Shown here piece by piece: positions 58-16,453 of a DNA stretch of 64,000 nt; positions within the stretch are counted from its first letter, which is position 1; every line of letters starts with the position of its first letter. The notes under the pieces were generated by a model that was not told where the DNA came from, did no database searches, and worked only from the letters and a program-made list of their open reading frames with translations. The stretch is from a virus: the IMG/VR virus record IMGVR_UViG_3300023117_002343, positions 11,694 to 75,693 of that record; one strand, given 5' to 3'. Position numbers and translations under genes: made by a program.

Positions 58-723
58 TCAGCCTTCCTTGCGCTCAAAGCCGTAAGCAATTGCATCGAAC
101 TGAGCGCCGGCGCCAACAGTGCCTGCTGTGAGATCGTCATTGATTTCGACGACCAGGCGGTGATTGGTATTTTTGGCCAACTTCAAACCGTACTGAAAGC
201 CAAATACGCCTTTGAAATCCAAAACAGGCAAATAACCGTCAGAGACGTTCTTACCGCTACCTGAAATTGACGGAGCCAAAAAAGCATTAGCGGCATCGCC
301 AAAGGCTGGATTACCCTGGCACAACCGAATAAAACTGAAGTTAACGATCAGATCCGTGGCAATATTTGTTTCGCCATTGTTGTCTTCGTAATATATTCGC
401 ACCCCGTTAGTCAATGCCGAGCCAATGCCCAAAAAATCATTGCCAAGTGACACGCCAGTTGCAGCTATCAAAAAAGATACGCTGGTAATATAAATGTCCA
501 GATTTGGCACGGCTTGAATATAAAAAAGCTGCGAAGTTGTGGAGCCGTCAACAAGCATGCTTGATGTTGTGCCATCCCCATCCAGAGTCAAAAAATCACG
601 GAAGACCTTCTGAATATCTCTTTCGTCATCTGGCGGAAATGGTGCAGGAGACACGCGCAGATATCCGCCGTCCTCAATCAGAGCTTGCTGGTTATCATCG
701 ATAATAGAAGTTCTGCGCGCCAT
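58..723 (-). CDS. Hypothetical virion-associated beta-rich protein
   Basis: 221-aa ORF tightly packed in the operon with the fibre-like genes. Confidence 0.6.
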   Translation of the reverse strand: MARRTSIIDDNQQALIEDGGYLRVSPAPFPPDDERDIQKVFRDFLTLDGDGTTSSMLVDGSTTSQLFYIQAVPNLDIYITSVSFLIAATGVSLGNDFLGIGSALTNGVRIYYEDNNGETNIATDLIVNFSFIRLCQGNPAFGDAANAFLAPSISGSGKNVSDGYLPVLDFKGVFGFQYGLKLAKNTNHRLVVEINDDLTAGTVGAGAQFDAIAYGFERKEG

Positions 724-725
724 TA

Positions 726-1307
726 TTACCTCTCAGTAAACAAAAAGGTTCTGGCGCCAAACTGAACGTCCATAGATGTATTGCCGGTCGGAGGAGTAAC
801 AGTAATGGCAAATGAATTGCCTTTTTTCAAAACCAATCTTGCAGGTTGCAAATTATTAAATTGGCCAATTGGAAAGCTAAGTAATGCCACATTAGTGCCT
901 CCCGTGACAGTCGAACCTTGAGCACCATATTGCAGTGTCACATCTAATTCTTTGGAGGAACCAAAATTTTGATTAAGAGATGTAGTTGCTGTTGGGGAAG
1001 AAATAGAAGTCGGATTTTTATACCAGTTCACTCTGAACATATCAGGCGAACCGCCAGTTGTGGCTTCAGCAACAAAAAAGAAGTTTTCAAAAATGAGATC
1101 TTTGTCTTCATTATTTTCACAGAAAAATATAGCGCTTTCTGCTGCATTCGTTAGATTAACTAGAGGAGTGCCTAGGAAAAACGCCTCTCCACTTGCAGCT
1201 GCCTCTGTAAATTCAGGCTCAATAACGCTTCTAACTTGAAGTTTATTAGATGAGTCGATTTTAGCTTTCTTTCCAGAACCTGTGCCGTCTAATAGTTGAA
1301 ATCCCAT
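726..1307 (-). CDS. Tandem paralogue 4 of a DGTG-motif family (probable virion protein)
   Basis: N-term LLDGTGSG..AKID..NKL, internal NQNFGSS and C-term LKKGNSF..P, shared with neighbours. Confidence 0.7.
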   Translation of the reverse strand: MGFQLLDGTGSGKKAKIDSSNKLQVRSVIEPEFTEAAASGEAFFLGTPLVNLTNAAESAIFFCENNEDKDLIFENFFFVAEATTGGSPDMFRVNWYKNPTSISSPTATTSLNQNFGSSKELDVTLQYGAQGSTVTGGTNVALLSFPIGQFNNLQPARLVLKKGNSFAITVTPPTGNTSMDVQFGARTFLFTER

Positions 1308-1310
1308 TTC

Positions 1311-1904
1311 TTAAGCTCCATTATTGTTTGGTAGTCTATGCGCATTAATCCCCACGGAGACTTGCAGAGACGTATTGGATGGCGGAGGTATGATATTAAC
1401 CCCAATGGAAGACCCTTTGGGCAAAATTGTCGCTGCAGTTTCCGTAGTTAGCGATTCGACCGGGGCAACCAAGGCTGCATATGTAGATCCGCCCGTCAAT
1501 GAAGCGGCCTCAGCGCCTATTTCGCTGGTGAGCGTGAGTGTGTTAGAAGATCCAAAATTAATGTTGGGAGCCAAAAGAGCAGTGCTTGAACCGCCACTCA
1601 TAGCCGTCGGATTTTTAATGATGATGCCTCTGACGTGGTTCTCTGTACCACCGGTACTGGCTCTGACCCCGACCAAAAATCTGGTGATAACCAGGTCAAA
1701 ATCATTATCATTTTGAAAATAAAGCACTGCACTTTGATTTGCCGATGTGAGAGTTACAAATCCAGATCCGATCAGGTAAGCATCGCCGGAAATTGCTGCC
1801 TCTTCCCGCTCAGTTCTCTGCACTGCATCTGTCTTAAGTCTGTTGACATCAGTGACTTGCGCAAGATAACCGTTGCCTGTTCCATCTTCAATATTAAATC
1901 CCAT
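1311..1904 (-). CDS. Tandem paralogue 3 of the DGTG-motif family
   Basis: IEDGTGNG..NRL, NINFGSS and LPKGSSIGV. Confidence 0.7.
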   Translation of the reverse strand: MGFNIEDGTGNGYLAQVTDVNRLKTDAVQRTEREEAAISGDAYLIGSGFVTLTSANQSAVLYFQNDNDFDLVITRFLVGVRASTGGTENHVRGIIIKNPTAMSGGSSTALLAPNINFGSSNTLTLTSEIGAEAASLTGGSTYAALVAPVESLTTETAATILPKGSSIGVNIIPPPSNTSLQVSVGINAHRLPNNNGA

Positions 1905-1912
1905 ATTTTTTC

Positions 1913-2509
1913 CTAGCTGTTATTTGCAAGCAAGAAACCTTGAAAGCCTGTATAGATGTTAATAGGCTGCTGACCATTGGGCTCGTAAGAGACGCCCAGT
2001 GATCCTCCCTTTGGTACTACCAAATAAACATTGCCAAAAACTCTAGAAGCAGCATTTTGAGTCTGATAAAGTACAGGAGTGTTTGATCCTGTTGGATTCA
2101 TCCAAAAGCCGTCACCGCCTTTTTTGACATCAACTTCAAAAGTCACTGCACTGCTAATTTTTCTGTTGACGACTGTAATATCTGTACCAGCAGAAACAAT
2201 AGAGCCCGTAGTAATATTTGGGTAGACTCTCATTAAAGCCTTTTCAGTTTCGGATCCGCCACTGAGTCCAGTGCCGATAAACCAAGCTGCAATCACGATA
2301 TCTTTATCTTCATTATTTTTAAAATAAAGTAGAGGAGTTTCAATCGATGCCGAAACTGCCAAAAATTCAGTATTAATATTGAATGCGTTGCCTCTTCCAA
2401 CGGCATCTTCAAAAAAAGTTTCGCTTTTAACAGAGGCTAGAGCTCTGTTTTCACTATCAATTTTTAGCGAAAAACCTTGACCCGTTCCGTCTTCAATTGT
2501 TGTTGCCAT
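1913..2509 (-). CDS. Tandem paralogue 2 of the DGTG-motif family
   Basis: IEDGTGQG..NRA, LLYFKNNEDKD and VPKGGSLGV. Confidence 0.7.
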   Translation of the reverse strand: MATTIEDGTGQGFSLKIDSENRALASVKSETFFEDAVGRGNAFNINTEFLAVSASIETPLLYFKNNEDKDIVIAAWFIGTGLSGGSETEKALMRVYPNITTGSIVSAGTDITVVNRKISSAVTFEVDVKKGGDGFWMNPTGSNTPVLYQTQNAASRVFGNVYLVVPKGGSLGVSYEPNGQQPINIYTGFQGFLLANNS

Positions 2510-2515
2510 TTTTAA

Positions 2516-3112
2516 TCACCCGAGTGTATCATTGTCGTACCACCAATGTGTGACGACAAGAGCTGTAGCTGTAACCGTCCCATTTGGAGGTGTAAGTTTA
2601 AAGCCAATGCTAGTGCCCTTAGGAAGCCGCCGCCCAAGCGGCAAAATAATTCTGTCAATTGATTGCTTGATCTTCTGTGGAGCGCCGGTACCATCCACTA
2701 GTGTGTCACCCTCTACTCCTTTAAAATTATCTCCGTTTGGAATATTCGCAGAGCCGTGATTGGAGTTTGAGATGCCGGCTGATACTGCATTATCGATAAT
2801 GGTTCCCGACGTTGGATTTCGCAGAACTCTGAAGGTCCAGTCCTGATCGGAACTAGCACTGACAGCCGTGCCTAAAATCAAAACAGCCCGGTCCAGCACG
2901 AAGTCTCTATCGTCTGTATTTTTGGTATATAGCACTGCTGTCTCATTAGCGCCGGTAAAACTGACCGGAGTCGAAGCGATCTGATAACCGTCTCCCACTA
3001 CAATAGCATTATCTTCTTCAGTAATAATAACAGCCTGCGACAGTAATCGATTTTGACCGGTCACTCTCAGCCGGTTTCTGGTTCCTGTTCCATCTTGAAT
3101 TGTTGTCGACAT
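2516..3112 (-). CDS. Tandem paralogue 1 of the DGTG-motif family
   Basis: IQDGTG..NRL, VLYTKNTDDRD, NSNHGSA and LPKGTSIG. Confidence 0.7.
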   Translation of the reverse strand: MSTTIQDGTGTRNRLRVTGQNRLLSQAVIITEEDNAIVVGDGYQIASTPVSFTGANETAVLYTKNTDDRDFVLDRAVLILGTAVSASSDQDWTFRVLRNPTSGTIIDNAVSAGISNSNHGSANIPNGDNFKGVEGDTLVDGTGAPQKIKQSIDRIILPLGRRLPKGTSIGFKLTPPNGTVTATALVVTHWWYDNDTLG

Positions 3113-11617: not shown

Positions 11618-12484
11618 TTAGCGCCCTGATCTAATGATCTCTCTAATGATTTTTTTCAGCTGCCTTTTGGCGCTTTTTATCTCTGCGCGTCGCGCATTCT
11701 CATATATGCCCTGCTCGCCAAAACGACGCAGGTATTTTTTGATCTTCTTGCGAAGACGCTCGGTGAACTCTGAGTCTGGATGGTCTCTGAAATACTGCGG
11801 AAAGTTGTAGCCTAGATCAATTTCATCGGCCAGCCTTGCCAGCTCAGAGACGTCTCCCTTTCTCGCCACCATTTGCTGCGCGGCAGACAGGCCAAATTCC
11901 TGCGCCAATCGCTCGGCAAACTCGTGGCCGAAAGCGTCGATTTCAATGCGAGACTTGAGATAATCAGTGACCGGAGCAGTTTCCTCTGGAATATCGTTCC
12001 ACTTTTCATACTGCTTTTTGGCTTGGTATTTGGTGATACCCTTATCTCTTGCCAAAGAATCATACTGCCGCAGATGAATCAGTTCGTGACGTACCTTGAT
12101 GGCCACGTCTTCCACCACTTTTTTGGCGTTGATCAGCTCCGGATCAAAACCTTCTTCAGCCATCACGATCTTGAGATAGATCTGGCCCTTACTGCGAGTC
12201 GACATGCGCGCTTCGGCGCCGATCAGATATCGATTGGGTTTTTCATCCGACTGCATCTCGACACCGTGATCTTCCTCGCTCAAGCTTTCGGCCACCACTT
12301 TGATGTTTAGACCGTGCTTTTTAAAAAATTTCTGCAGTGTCTTTTTAAGAAGATCAGCTGATTCTGTCAGAGCCTCTCGCCCAAATCGATCCTCATTGTC
12401 GTGCAGCCAAAAGCCCGAAGAGTAAAGAGTCGAGGTCAGGTCCTTGTACAAAAAAGAATCAAGGGGTGCTTCAAAAAGTTTCAT
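11618..12484 (-). CDS. Zincin-like metallopeptidase (HExxH), probable head-associated protein
   Basis: RHELIHLRQY plus downstream EIDAF. N-term MKLFE, C-term QLKKIIREII. Confidence 0.6.
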   Translation of the reverse strand: MKLFEAPLDSFLYKDLTSTLYSSGFWLHDNEDRFGREALTESADLLKKTLQKFFKKHGLNIKVVAESLSEEDHGVEMQSDEKPNRYLIGAEARMSTRSKGQIYLKIVMAEEGFDPELINAKKVVEDVAIKVRHELIHLRQYDSLARDKGITKYQAKKQYEKWNDIPEETAPVTDYLKSRIEIDAFGHEFAERLAQEFGLSAAQQMVARKGDVSELARLADEIDLGYNFPQYFRDHPDSEFTERLRKKIKKYLRRFGEQGIYENARRAEIKSAKRQLKKIIREIIRSGR

Positions 12485-13131: not shown

Positions 13132-13442
13132 TATGCTTCCGTTTCTTCGTCTGGAGCTGCAGCCAAAGCTTGTTTGAGCTTTGTCAAATCAACATTTTGA
13201 CCTTTGTCCATCAGTTTAATAAAAAAATCAGCAACCAACTCATTCTGTGCTGTATTGCGTCGATCTTTTTTAAGAGCAGCAATCAATTTTTGAGGCTCGT
13301 CAGCACCGATCTGATTTGCTAACTGCTTTAACTTTTGAAGCTGTTGACCTTCAATTGAAGCATCATCTTGTTCTTGAAGCAAACGTTTTTTAAGCTCGGT
13401 GCGAATCATCGCTCTCAGTTTGGATTCTTTGATAGGGGGCAT
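13131..13442 (-). CDS. Hypothetical protein with a KESKLRAMIRTEL..LLQE leader
   Basis: AGGAG RBS; ATATTTA motif upstream. Confidence 0.7.
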   Translation of the reverse strand: MPPIKESKLRAMIRTELKKRLLQEQDDASIEGQQLQKLKQLANQIGADEPQKLIAALKKDRRNTAQNELVADFFIKLMDKGQNVDLTKLKQALAAAPDEETEA

Positions 13443-13469
13443 GGTTTTCTCCTAACAGGTTACTGCAGG

Positions 13470-13476
13470 TAAATAT
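13470..13476 (-). promoter_or_regulatory. ATATTTA motif (candidate late promoter)
   Basis: Recurs in short intergenic gaps upstream of L/I-x-E protein genes. Confidence 0.55.
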
Positions 13477-13490
13477 CCCCCGCCAGATCT

Positions 13491-14429
13491 TTATGCAACC
13501 AAACGTTCCGGTCCGCCCTCAAATTTTTGGAGGTAATCAAAGACGGCCAGCTCCTTGGCCTTGGCTTCCATGGCAACATCGACCGATTTGCCACACGAAT
13601 CGAAAGGCTCGTAGTAGTAGTCTGAGTGTGCTGCCAAGGATCTACAGGATGAATCCTCGTACTTTTTGCGGCTGTTGGAGTGGTGGCAGACAGGCCGAAT
13701 GCCTTTGGGCCATGTCTCGTAAGCCATCAGAAACGCTTCCTCGTAGGTCGAATCCTGAGGTCCGCACGCAGCGTGGTGAGAATCAAAAACGATGGGAATT
13801 CCCAGGCGCTTGTAGACCGATTCGTAAAGCATCTTGGTGGAGTAGAGATTGGCCCTGTCGTCGTTTTCTACCGTCAGCCGACAGCGCACATTTTCGGGCA
13901 GCCTCTCGAAATTGCGGCACCAGGTGTCCAGGGCCTTTTCTCGATCGCCGTAAGCTGCGCCGATGTGGATGTTGATCTTGGCTTCATGTGTTCGTGGCAT
14001 GCCGAGCATGTCCATCTGATCGCCATGAATCGAAAGATCCTTCACACAGTTGAGAACGACGTCTTCTTTGGGAGATGCCAAGCAATTGAAAGGCCCCGGG
14101 TGAAACGAGAGCCGCTGTCCTGTGTCTCGTGCCAATTGGCCGGCATGTCGCAAGTTCTCTCGGATGGCATCAATATCCGGCAGGTCGCTCCAGTCGTATT
14201 CGCTGGCCCAGGGAAACATGGTGGAAGTGATGCGAAACACTTCGAAACCGTTCTCAGAATTCCACTGAATAATCTCTTTTAAGTCCGTGGTGTTCTTTAG
14301 GGACAGCTCTGATACATAACCCAGGCCCTTAGCGTCAAATGTCTTACGACGCATCGTGCGATTGGTCATGATGCCGCGGGATTTTTGCAGCGTAAGATTG
14401 ATGCAGCAGTAACCGTATCGGTTTGTCAT
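13491..14429 (-). CDS. uvsE: UV-damage endonuclease (UvsE/UVDE)
   Basis: GYCCIN, FRITS.MFP, RLSFHPG, INIHIG, LTVENDD, IVFDSHH, HSDY and MEAKAKE motifs. Start reassigned to the ATG after GGAG. Confidence 0.92.
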   Translation of the reverse strand: MTNRYGYCCINLTLQKSRGIMTNRTMRRKTFDAKGLGYVSELSLKNTTDLKEIIQWNSENGFEVFRITSTMFPWASEYDWSDLPDIDAIRENLRHAGQLARDTGQRLSFHPGPFNCLASPKEDVVLNCVKDLSIHGDQMDMLGMPRTHEAKINIHIGAAYGDREKALDTWCRNFERLPENVRCRLTVENDDRANLYSTKMLYESVYKRLGIPIVFDSHHAACGPQDSTYEEAFLMAYETWPKGIRPVCHHSNSRKKYEDSSCRSLAAHSDYYYEPFDSCGKSVDVAMEAKAKELAVFDYLQKFEGGPERLVA

Positions 14430-14455
14430 TGCTTTCTCCATGGGCAGTTTATTAG

Positions 14456-14485
14456 ATTTTATCACACTTTGGACCATAATTACAC
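14456..14485 (-). promoter_or_regulatory. sigma70-like promoter GTGTAA-N18-TAAAAT for uvsE, overlapping a plus-strand ATAATTA motif at 14476-14482
   Basis: The same -35/-10 pair is found at four other sites. Confidence 0.6.
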
Positions 14486-14505
14486 GTAACATCGGAGATT
14501 TATAA

Positions 14506-15204
14506 ATGAAGCTAGAAGACGTTCTCAATGAATCGCTTGACGACCTGCTGCGCGAGGCTCTGCAGGAAGACAAAGACCAAAACAAAGACGGCAAAAATGA
14601 TTTTGATGACGTTAAAATTGCCAGAATGAAAGCTTCTGGAATGTCTGATAAAGAAATTCGCAAGAAGCACCCTGATCTATTTGCTGAGTCTGATGAGCTG
14701 CCGGCAAGTTACAAAGCTAAGAAGGGCACCAAAAGAGGCGACAAGCTTCGAAAACTTACCGATCGATACAAAAATGCCAAGACAGAAAAAGAAAAAGAAG
14801 CTGCTCGCAAGGCTCGAGACAAGTATGAAGAAGAAATCGCTAAAAAGAACACTTACGGTAAACCAAAAAAGAGTAAGTACTCAGAATCTGTTTTAGATGA
14901 TTTGTTAGATGACTTGTTGACAGAAATCGCCGTGGAAGAGGCTAAGAAAAAGAAGCCAAAAAAGATCAGTAAGAAAGTTGATGCAGCTCTGAAGAAAAAA
15001 GCAAAGAAGCACAATGCGCCTTTGGGGGCACTTAAAGCAGTCTATAGAAAAGGTATGGGCGCATTTTACACCTCCGGAGCACGGCCGGGGCAGAGCGCCC
15101 ACTCTTGGGCCATGGGAAGAGTCAACTCCTTCCTCAAAGGCGGTAAGGCAAGAAAGGTCGATTCTGCGCAGTGGAACCAAGTCAAGAAGCATAGGAAAAA
15201 ATAG
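14506..15204 (+). CDS. Basic protein with an EF-hand-like loop and a DUF5824-like C-terminal domain
   Basis: DQNKDGKNDFDD loop; LKAVYRKGMGAFYTSGARPGQSAHSWAMGRVNSF resembles DUF5824 from memory; multiple LxE sites. Confidence 0.65.
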   Translation: MKLEDVLNESLDDLLREALQEDKDQNKDGKNDFDDVKIARMKASGMSDKEIRKKHPDLFAESDELPASYKAKKGTKRGDKLRKLTDRYKNAKTEKEKEAARKARDKYEEEIAKKNTYGKPKKSKYSESVLDDLLDDLLTEIAVEEAKKKKPKKISKKVDAALKKKAKKHNAPLGALKAVYRKGMGAFYTSGARPGQSAHSWAMGRVNSFLKGGKARKVDSAQWNQVKKHRKK

Positions 15205-15464
15205 TGATTAATAAGACAAAGTTGGCTGCGCTGTCTACTGTGATTTTTTTCTTGACGGGATTTTCAGGTGTTTCCAGTGGCAAACTACCTGCTCGATCAA
15301 AGTTCTACGACTTCTCTGACACTCTGATAGACGGCGAGATCAAGAAGCCGACCGCACTGTACACGGATGTTCGGCAGCAGGTCAAGTTCGAAAGGCTTCT
15401 CAAGATTCGGAAGTCCTTTCTGCGCAATCTCTTTGACACGGCAAAAGAGAGAGTCTTTAAGTAA
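15204..15464 (+). CDS. cglF: Secreted CglF/GltF-like gliding-motility protein homologue
   Basis: Signal peptide followed by DFSDTLIDGEIKKP...Y...R..VKF..L..IR..F, matching the CglF/GltF pattern DF.D..I.G...KP...Y..R...K...LI.IR..F. Confidence 0.7.
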   Translation: MINKTKLAALSTVIFFLTGFSGVSSGKLPARSKFYDFSDTLIDGEIKKPTALYTDVRQQVKFERLLKIRKSFLRNLFDTAKERVFK

Positions 15465-15672
15465 GGCTTGATCCCTTGATAAATTCTTCAACGAATAGCC
15501 GAAGTTGTTTTTCAGCACTTTCCTGCATGCTGGTCGTGTCTGTCAGTTTTTGCCAGTGTTTTTGAGAAATGCCCATAGGCACTCCGCCGCGGCGTCTTGC
15601 AAGGTCTTCAGGCGTGAGATACATGGCCTGCTCACGAATAAGATTTCGAATTTGCCTTAGGCTAACTTTCAC
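15457..15672 (-). CDS. Small protein with an MKVSLRQIRNLIRE leader
   Basis: GTG start overlapping the upstream stop; shared leader motif. Confidence 0.6.
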   Translation of the reverse strand: MKVSLRQIRNLIREQAMYLTPEDLARRRGGVPMGISQKHWQKLTDTTSMQESAEKQLRLFVEEFIKGSSLT

Positions 15673-16058
15673 TTATTGCCCTCGGCAACCTCGTTCATCG
15701 TCTCTAGCGTCTTCTGAATCACTAGCTGCTCGATGCGCTTAGGATCCACCAACTCGGTCAGTTTTCTGAAGGTATCAACGAAGGAGGCCATCTCTTCCAG
15801 TTGCTCACTCAGCTTTTGAATGGTATCATCGACAGCAAACTCGCCGGAAACTGCGGACGTCTTCAGTTCCAAAAAGCCCTGCGTGCTAATGTTTCTCAGG
15901 CCATCGAGCTGAGTTGGTTGATTTGCTGCAGGCTCTTCTTTCTGCGCGACCTGATTTGATTGAACCGGTTGATTCTGAGATTCTTCGATGCGCTGTGTCG
16001 ACCCTGAAGGTTGGGCCGACAGCCGATAAGGCATGTTAAGCGGCGCATCGATTCTCAT
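15669..16058 (-). CDS. Hypothetical protein
   Basis: 129-aa ORF in the operon. Confidence 0.6.
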   Translation of the reverse strand: MRIDAPLNMPYRLSAQPSGSTQRIEESQNQPVQSNQVAQKEEPAANQPTQLDGLRNISTQGFLELKTSAVSGEFAVDDTIQKLSEQLEEMASFVDTFRKLTELVDPKRIEQLVIQKTLETMNEVAEGNK

Positions 16059-16061
16059 CTA

Positions 16062-16349
16062 TCAATAACCAGAAGCATCTTCTAATGCTTGTAAAGCCGC
16101 CTCAAACTGATCAAGTGCTGCCATAGCGTCGTTCATAAGCTCATGAGCACCAGACATTTTATTCCAAAGCTGACCTTCAGCAGGAAGCGCCATACCACGA
16201 CTTAAAATTCTATCCGCGCGATCACGAAGAGACTGTTCTCTGTCGCGGATATGACTCCGAAGTTGAAACCTTGTCATGGGTTGTTCCGATAAGATTCGGG
16301 CTTTTTCTTCTTGAATAATTCTTCTTAGTTGTTGTTTTGTGATCTTCAT
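16062..16349 (-). CDS. Small protein with an MKITKQQLRRIIQEE..ILSE leader
   Basis: GAGGTGGAG RBS; shared leader motif. Confidence 0.7.
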   Translation of the reverse strand: MKITKQQLRRIIQEEKARILSEQPMTRFQLRSHIRDREQSLRDRADRILSRGMALPAEGQLWNKMSGAHELMNDAMAALDQFEAALQALEDASGY

Positions 16350-16368
16350 TGCTCCACCTCTAGCTTTT

Positions 16369-16453
16369 TGTCGAAAAGGATGAGGAGTACTACCTCCATT
16401 CCCCTGCTTGGTTACCCTGCGGCGTGATTCGTTCTATATCCAACCCTCAGACA
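16369..16453 (-). ncRNA. Candidate rod-like structured RNA with weak SRP (4.5S)-like features
   Basis: Ends pair (TGTC/GACA, GAGGGT/ATCCTT with G-U pairs, GGA/TCC); apical GG-GTAA-CC GNRA loop followed by AAGCAG. Confidence 0.3.

Follow-up and report, generated by a model that had tools for sequence, protein, structure and literature searches.

A phage-encoded GltF/CglF-family protein of a non-canonical subfamily, and its predicted docking to a GltC-like protein of Myxococcota

We have analyzed a 64,000-nucleotide stretch of viral DNA (the window), positions 11,694 to 75,693 of the IMG/VR virus record IMGVR_UViG_3300023117_002343, and in particular a small plus-strand gene at 15204..15464 (stop codon included) that encodes a protein of 86 amino acids, here called phage F. 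An initial annotation had placed an open reading frame (ORF) exactly at this position, and likened its core to that of the Myxococcus gliding-motility protein CglF/GltF. Judged by profile comparison, phage F is a genuine GltF/CglF homologue at the level of the family. It belongs, however, to a subfamily that is a paralogue of the canonical GltF. We regard it as an even bet that phage F is a host-derived, Sec-exported periplasmic linker that docks in a Glt-like complex of the host as a working replacement subunit. We infer that phage F is exported, that it binds in vivo and sustains the complex, and that the host belongs to the Myxococcota; what the cellular machine does is likewise a matter of inference.

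The sole family matched by phage F is NCBIfam NF033764 (gliding_CglF), with E = 2.8e-9 and a score of 36.9 bits. The match spans residues 31–80 of the protein and positions 36–85 of the 88 in the profile, so the motif named in the initial annotation is real. The equivalog cut-off of this profile is 90 bits, a score that phage F does not reach. Pfam and PHROGs returned nothing significant for the protein. We used hhalign to compare an alignment of the family of phage F (A2) with one of canonical GltF-type proteins from Myxococcota genomes (A4), and obtained a probability of 98.5% with E = 3.1e-15 over 52 columns. Together with the NF033764 match this bears out the proposal of a phage-borne CglF/GltF homologue with a signal peptide. 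Clusters of 47–151 amino acids that match phage F with E ≤ 0.01 number 771, most with 55–82% identity, and the ORF is therefore far beyond chance. The matches in the ESM Atlas are mostly viral clusters, and a tblastn search of 50,697 deposited phage genomes with phage F gave no match.

CglF has been equated with GltF (PMC4488436), a protein of 89 amino acids with a signal peptide that is needed for gliding and is found at focal adhesions; gltF is restricted to the Myxococcales and Bdellovibrionales (PMC3169522). Phage F resembles GltF of Myxococcus xanthus (MXAN_4868) in its length (~86–89 amino acids), in an apparent type I signal peptide (a basic n-region, then a hydrophobic h-region; cysteine is absent), and in a common core (K)x[FY]DFxDxx[IV][DE]G...[KR]P ... 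[SR]L[LI]x[LI][RK]xxF. In both proteins the C-terminal helix is predicted to lie in a crevice of GltC or a GltC-like protein (PMC11761067 for GltF, and the docking described below for phage F). Phage F differs in its low core identity with canonical sequences (23–40%), in falling into a separate clade and in being encoded by the phage alone, without gltD, gltE, gltG or gltH. It does not share the position of gltF in a gltD-gltE-gltF-gltG-gltH cluster; its neighbors are uvdE, a gene for a DUF5824 protein and small ORFs.

The N-terminus of phage F has the character of a Sec signal peptide, predicted for amino acids 1–26 (15204..15281, plus strand) from the sequence, a modeled helix at residues 3–19 and the N-termini of homologues. 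It has basic residues K4 and K6, a hydrophobic stretch of 15 residues (7–21) and the small-residue c-region VSSG, after which cleavage would be expected. In the alignments all homologues have a hydrophobic N-terminus and a small-residue motif directly before the conserved core. There is no cysteine in phage F, so it is not a lipoprotein and appears to have a type I signal peptide. The mature protein begins with a conserved motif at amino acids 31–49, RSKFYDFSDTLIDGEIKKP (15294..15350, plus strand), seen in alignments A1 and A2 with F34, Y35, D36, F37, G44 and P49 invariant. In canonical GltF-type proteins its aligned counterpart is the motif YDFxD..[IV][ED]G...P. We modeled the monomer with AlphaFold2 from an alignment of 108 sequences, and the mean predicted local distance difference test (pLDDT) score was 77. 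The model has the signal-peptide helix, an extended region of lower confidence at residues 27–50 and a long helix at residues 51–80 (15354..15443, plus strand), which with the tail to residue 86 is the main predicted docking element. Confidence peaks at residues 61–86, where block means of pLDDT are 86–94. The modeled shape is linker-like, without a globular fold, and no solved structure in the PDB resembles phage F (best E = 0.3).

These features bear on a proposal that phage F is a transferable public good, passed from infected to neighboring cells in the manner of the Cgl proteins in outer-membrane exchange. The name cgl refers to contact-stimulatable mutants, and CglF has been equated with GltF (PMC4488436). 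Yet there is neither a lipobox nor a cysteine, the modeled partner is periplasmic and nothing in the data concerns transfer, and we consider the proposal very improbable. The initial annotation had suggested that phage F may alter gliding, occlude a receptor or pass to neighboring cells. To judge from the sequence, the missing lipobox and a consensus close to that of cellular proteins favor neither lipoprotein-type transfer nor the occlusion of a receptor.

The place of phage F within the family was examined in a tree of 168 core sequences over 55 columns, with 18 canonical and 150 subfamily-2 rows. A branch with a support of 100 divides the canonical sequences from those of subfamily 2, and phage F lies inside the 150. 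The phylogeny that the initial annotation had called for thus places phage F on the other side of this branch from the canonical sequences. The profile search that it had called for gave a significant match, below the equivalog cut-off. The core of phage F is 80% identical to the best phage copy and 78% identical to the best Myxococcota copy (L003); four other Myxococcota copies are each 76% identical, and the range for Myxococcota is 49–78%. The canonical type has the pattern '..YKKKTxYDFEDDxVEG..RPEGE....SSLIRIRE.FVPEMLKSAEDI' and subfamily 2 has 'KSKFYDFSDQLIDGEIKKPT.LYTD.R..VKF.RLL.LKKSF.....T.KE.VFK'.

Scores to NF033764 form a continuum in 201 sampled Myxococcota genomes. There are matches in 151 genomes, usually one to three in each, and only three genomes have a match above the 90-bit cut-off. 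A subfamily-2 match of at least 85 bits is present in about 45 of the 201. At least seven genomes have both a canonical and a subfamily-2 gene at separate loci, the canonical gene scoring 74–91 bits with NF033764 and the subfamily-2 gene 85–91 bits with profile A1. In one of these genomes (G066) both F copies stand last in a series of their own, made up of GltC-like, GltD-like, GltE-like and F genes. As the two types coexist at different loci of single genomes, subfamily 2 is on this comparison a paralogue of the canonical GltF.

Could phage F nevertheless be the true GltF of the Agl-Glt motor, by which the phage changes the gliding of a gliding predatory host? NF033764 is its sole family match, GltF is required for gliding and located at focal adhesions (PMC3169522), and the family is confined to the Myxococcota and relatives. 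Against this the score is 36.9 rather than 90 bits, the 100-support branch separates phage F from canonical GltF, and the canonical protein coexists with subfamily 2 in at least seven genomes, so the identification as the gliding GltF in the initial annotation does not hold. Moreover M. xanthus has paralogous Glt-like clusters, nfs/G3 (involved in spore-coat assembly), G4 and G5, none of which contributes to gliding (PMC3169522), and there is no gltG, gltH, gltI or gltJ in the context of phage F. We therefore think a gliding role quite unlikely. The host suggested at the outset was a gliding predatory deltaproteobacterium. The cellular relatives of phage F are indeed almost all in metagenome-assembled genomes (MAGs) of Myxococcota, in keeping with the published range of gltF (PMC3169522), but given the paralogy and the non-gliding Glt-like clusters of M. 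xanthus neither gliding nor a gliding predatory host is established. The label 'adventurous gliding motility protein CglF' attached to NF033764 makes mis-annotation easy, and it is unsafe to read gliding from a paralogue.

The cellular genes of subfamily 2 have a consistent context. We collected 80 loci from species-representative genomes, almost all of them Myxococcota MAGs, with a guanine plus cytosine (GC) content of 50–72%. In 50–65 of the 80 loci F closes a conserved co-directional run. The run starts with one or two genes for outer-membrane beta-barrels (A/B; TIGR04565, OMP_myx_plus), followed by a GltC-like protein of ~640 amino acids (C) that matches NF033756 over its full length with 183–202 bits, below the 450-bit cut-off. 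Next come a tetratricopeptide repeat (TPR) protein of ~1160 amino acids, the size of GltD (D), and a GltE-like TPR protein (E; NF033758, 58–70 bits, sub-threshold). The subfamily-2 F gene is last. The nfs operon has this same A/B-C-D-E-F order. Its NfsF, which belongs to the spore-coat machine Nfs (G3 of M. xanthus), is likewise a GltF paralogue, in an A-to-H operon with the order A-B-C-D-E-F (PMC3169522); we compared it by operon order. The cellular loci examined differ in having no G- or H-like genes (NfsG- or NfsH-like) after F. What follows F varies; among the genes there are those for a DEAH helicase and for large Ig-like proteins of the 'choice-of-anchor D'/ASH kind. The subfamily-2 operon is probably comparable to the G4 and G5 clusters of M. 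xanthus.

Phage F is closest to the F protein of these MAG operons, with 49–78% core identity, a near-identical consensus, the same length and signal peptide, and predicted docking to the GltC-like protein. It differs in that the phage copy is detached from the operon, and lies in a genome of 45% GC as opposed to loci of 50–72%.

Two side observations on the cellular loci may be recorded. The A–F operon is repeatedly flanked by very large secreted 'choice-of-anchor D'/ASH/HYDIN-like Ig proteins of 750–1300 amino acids (for example L060:10710-16641 and L206:8517-14431), which may be cargo or adhesins of the machine. In addition a second, divergent F-like gene lies in tandem ~330 bp downstream of the subfamily-2 F in five Myxococcota loci (L050, L054, L057, L060 and L070), and 0.5–1 kb downstream in four others (L002, L003, L022 and L029).

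In a published AlphaFold model of the M. xanthus machinery GltF bridges the complex, with its C-terminal helix in a crevice of GltC and a beta-strand paired with the TonB-like domain of GltG (PMC11761067). We docked mature phage F (residues 27–86) with the GltC-like protein of a MAG locus (L008, residues 28–643), each with its own alignment. The interaction prediction score from aligned errors (ipSAE) was 0.88, 0.87 and 0.88 in three runs, compared with 0.00 for the best control. The model has ~124 confident contacts, of contacts overall 92% or more recur between runs, and the partner has a pLDDT of at least 69. The mark used to call docking is reached by 58 of 80 solved complexes and by 2 of 110 mismatched pairs, a calibration that is rough here with user-made alignments. 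The modeled interface comprises residues 31–49 and 61–86 of phage F and residues ~242–430 of the GltC-like protein, which form a TPR groove; the lowest-error contacts with the groove are made by residues 61 and 64–86. Fourteen of the 18 invariant or near-invariant positions of F fall inside the interface. The prediction is unlikely to be recall of a known complex, because F has no solved relative and the GltC-like protein matches only generic TPR proteins. The docking model thus lends in silico support to a putative binding of phage F to the GltC-like protein.

At least 80 IMG/VR viral contigs carry a subfamily-2 gene, all with a GC content of 34–51%. Many of them have phage genes in common with the window: 23 have its GroEL, nine its DnaB helicase and seven its UvsX. 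Two contigs (L140 and L097) are syntenic with the window around F, and a third (L113) has the DnaE region in common with it. A tblastn search (E ≤ 1e-4) of the window, the rest of the record and 80 viral loci for relatives of GltA/B, C, D or E found none, so that phage F stands alone. When the window is compared with contigs where GroEL is 34–38% identical, the F core is 56–75% identical. Against six families of neighboring genes, F is the more conserved in 94–100% of contig pairs; against GroEL the figure is 66%. None of the 74 phage F sequences used has an internal stop. Between the phage consensus and the cellular one there are only two clear differences in 55 positions, D/E at 39 and M/L at 76, both conservative. 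By this comparison no interaction element has been lost from phage F relative to the cellular consensus, and very strong purifying selection acts on the gene throughout a deep clade of phages.

These data also concern the notion that phage F is a recently captured passenger with no role in infection. The cassette formed by F and the DUF5824 gene (14506-15464) diverges from its counterpart in the closest relative, a syntenic contig (L140:9213-10162), more than do the flanking genes, with 30% identity for the DUF5824 gene and 69% for F, compared with 82% for uvdE and 79% for GroEL. Such a pattern points to a swappable locus. But a copy is carried by at least 80 viral contigs, conservation of the core exceeds that of GroEL where the GroEL proteins are only 34–38% identical, and the 74 sequences are free of internal stops, which makes a passenger most improbable.

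In the reading that we prefer, phage F would be a host-derived 'F' subunit, of ~60 amino acids when mature, of a Myxococcota Glt-like envelope complex. During infection the phage-made protein would be exported to the periplasm and dock into the host complex, the N-terminal motif and C-terminal helix lying in the TPR groove of the host GltC-like protein, which would sit beneath the GltA/B-like outer-membrane barrels. Phage F might thereby keep the host machine running or re-tune it as host gene expression fails. All conserved residues are kept, no partner gene is carried and the purifying selection is very strong, and it is for these reasons that we read phage F as a working replacement and not as a crippled inhibitor; a sustaining role is more likely than one of jamming.

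Jamming, or superinfection exclusion, is the strongest of the rivals, though we rate it as rather unlikely. Here an excess of partnerless F would occupy the GltC-like groove and any second partner separately, so that the Glt-like complex, for example a surface machine serving as the phage receptor, is uncoupled or locked. F is indeed present without A–E, and is a small, putatively exported protein whose predicted binding site is on the periplasmic side of an outer-membrane complex; furthermore the M. xanthus model makes GltF a bridge that binds through two distinct elements (PMC11761067), and an excess of a bridge can titrate its partners apart. On the other hand the phage consensus is near-identical to the cellular one with no interface element lost, the cell already makes the same protein so that an effect would need dosage alone, and no receptor is known. 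An analogy might be drawn with phage T5. Its lipoprotein Llp, a superinfection-exclusion factor, blocks FhuA from the inner side, and like phage F as predicted it is a small phage-encoded envelope protein acting on an outer-membrane complex from within. Unlike phage F, Llp is a lipoprotein and is unrelated to the subunits of its target, and the Glt-like complex is not known to act as a receptor.

Several points weigh against phage F as a docked working subunit. A wild-type-like linker in excess could just as well uncouple the complex. The PDB relatives of the GltC-like protein are consensus TPR proteins only, and cover exactly the region of the groove. TPR grooves bind helical peptides generically, so generic docking is a caveat. 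By hand count 20 of 76 GltC-like residues at the interface are conserved, compared with 123 of 616 overall, which is no clear enrichment. The GltC-like chain used came from a MAG of 70% GC, as a stand-in for the host. In the one cellular genome inspected (G001) there was no TolQR-type inner-membrane motor or TonB-like GltG within ~17 kb upstream and ~16 kb downstream. Lastly, a tree of 55 columns gives neither the direction nor the number of transfers.

The F gene has moved between Myxococcota and these phages at least once. Transfer from host to phage is the parsimonious direction, as the family is otherwise cellular, with its genes set in operons. The unconstrained tree mixes phage and cell rows, with eight to nine changes of label between them. 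Approximately unbiased (AU) tests rejected neither a single clade of phage rows (p = 0.66) nor a single clade of cell rows (p = 0.74), and the likelihood under these constraints even exceeded that of the quickly built unconstrained tree. We also considered repeated exchange within subfamily 2, and dropped it since the AU tests allow single clades and the constrained trees are likelier.

A second F subtype, '..VVYKQKTEIDFEGLEIEG..KPQ.AL.LERKKA.FNPLIKLRTDWN..', is present on at least 16 other IMG/VR contigs (L208–L223) with a GC content of 33–56%. It scores 57–77 bits with the canonical profile and 16–27 bits with A2 in 15 of the 16, L219 being divergent. Taking these contigs as viral from their listing in IMG/VR, this suggests a second, separate capture of an F-type linker.

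The host of the phage is probably a member of the Myxococcota. We base this on two things only, the phyletic range of the gene and the docking model; a search with uvdE for a second line to the host (~7,850 matches) yielded no hint of one.

We turn now to the locus. The gene upstream of F, at 14506..15204 on the plus strand, encodes 232 amino acids with a C-terminal DUF5824 domain (PF19141, E = 9.4e-10; phrog_28338, E = 3.2e-12). The DUF5824 and F genes make a two-gene plus-strand cassette amid minus-strand genes, and the syntenic contig L140 has a cassette at the equivalent place. The remark that there are only two credible plus-strand genes (14506-15204 and 15204-15464) is correct for this neighborhood. 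F starts with GTG (15204-15206), and the stop codon TAG of the upstream gene is at 15202-15204, so that one G is common to both. A Shine-Dalgarno-like AGGA lies on the plus strand at 15193-15196, 7 nt before the GTG. This overlap and the AGGA site suggest that translation of F is coupled to that of the upstream gene. The divergent intergenic region between uvdE (minus strand) and the cassette, 14442..14505, has GGAG at 14494-14497 and is the expected place of a promoter. A scan for sigma-70 consensus promoters and terminators found no plus-strand site for the cassette.

The ORF of UvdE as listed (13491-14663, minus strand, 390 amino acids, with a TTG start at 14663) is over-extended. UvdE homologues have 304–316 amino acids, and the Pfam domain begins at residue 83 of the 390. 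The true start is likely the ATG at 14441, and uvdE would therefore not overlap the plus-strand gene at 14506.

In another relative, P0004, a protein of 108 amino acids has a start of ~25 residues that resembles the start of the DUF5824 gene product and is fused straight to F. This suggests that the body of the DUF5824 gene has been deleted in that lineage, and that the locus is swappable. Elsewhere F is found in a conserved block downstream of GroEL, either directly before a PAP2 phosphatase or beside NUDIX, a trypsin-like protease and a MopE-motif protein. The block is strict in five contigs (L096, L114, L118, L120 and L137), with a 500-amino acid protein, GroEL, small proteins of ~80–160 amino acids, F, the PAP2 phosphatase and a protein with a LeuA-dimer-like domain. 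That a membrane enzyme, PAP2, comes immediately after F hints at a wider envelope-modifying module.

The source record is 75.7 kb long with a CheckV completeness of 20%, and so the full phage genome may be of a few hundred kb. Markers of a large tailed phage include a tail sheath, a DnaE-type polymerase, a two-subunit T4-type topoisomerase II, ribonucleotide reductase, DnaB, UvsX, GroEL, a Cu/Zn superoxide dismutase and UvdE. No tRNA or tmRNA gene was found in the window or the rest of the record. On the minus strand at 58-3112 of the window there are five tandem paralogous genes of 193–221 amino acids. The inner four are 27–39% identical over ~170–190 amino acids, and the first copy (58-723) matches only in part, with 27–34% identity over 44–112 amino acids.

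The habitat of the phage is salt marsh. The region 13400-16400 is present near-verbatim in more than 20 salt-marsh metagenome runs from one 2018 campaign. Two salt-marsh metatranscriptome runs have contigs across F (for example X14, 15172-15703), with cover that is even over 3 kb. DNA carry-over is possible, and these contigs are no evidence of F expression.

We found no paper on a phage-borne GltF/CglF in the literature searched. By analogy phage F may be likened to auxiliary phage genes that stand in for a labile subunit of the host, such as psbA/D1 of cyanophages. Each is a fully conserved single subunit, of host origin, from a multi-subunit host machine; it lacks partner genes and is maintained by purifying selection throughout a large clade of phages. 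The difference is that the host machine of phage F is an envelope complex, not a metabolic one. Photosystem genes are mentioned for jumbo cyanophages (PMC9123017). Here a phage carries a single structural subunit of a trans-envelope machine, and with this the notion of auxiliary genes reaches beyond metabolism to the machinery of the envelope.

What this study contributes is the assignment of phage F to a paralogue found alongside canonical GltF within individual genomes, the conserved A–F operon, the controlled docking to a GltC-like protein and the second F subtype. It provides a testable host prediction, Myxococcota, for a large and widespread group of uncultured jumbo phages. There is in Myxococcota a widespread conserved Glt-like operon that is distinct from the gliding Glt system, and phage F offers a tool with which to perturb it. 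We suggest tentatively, as a possibility that falls well short of an even chance, that a deep clade of aquatic jumbo phages depends on a Glt-like outer-membrane machine of Myxococcota and carries its smallest subunit as a 'key'. The machine could serve as a route of entry or of exit, or be something that the infected cell must keep running. If this is true, capture of the linker of a trans-envelope machine would be a recurrent phage strategy, as the second subtype on at least 16 contigs would indicate, and the phage F genes would be natural probes of orphan Glt paralogues of the G4 and G5 kind.

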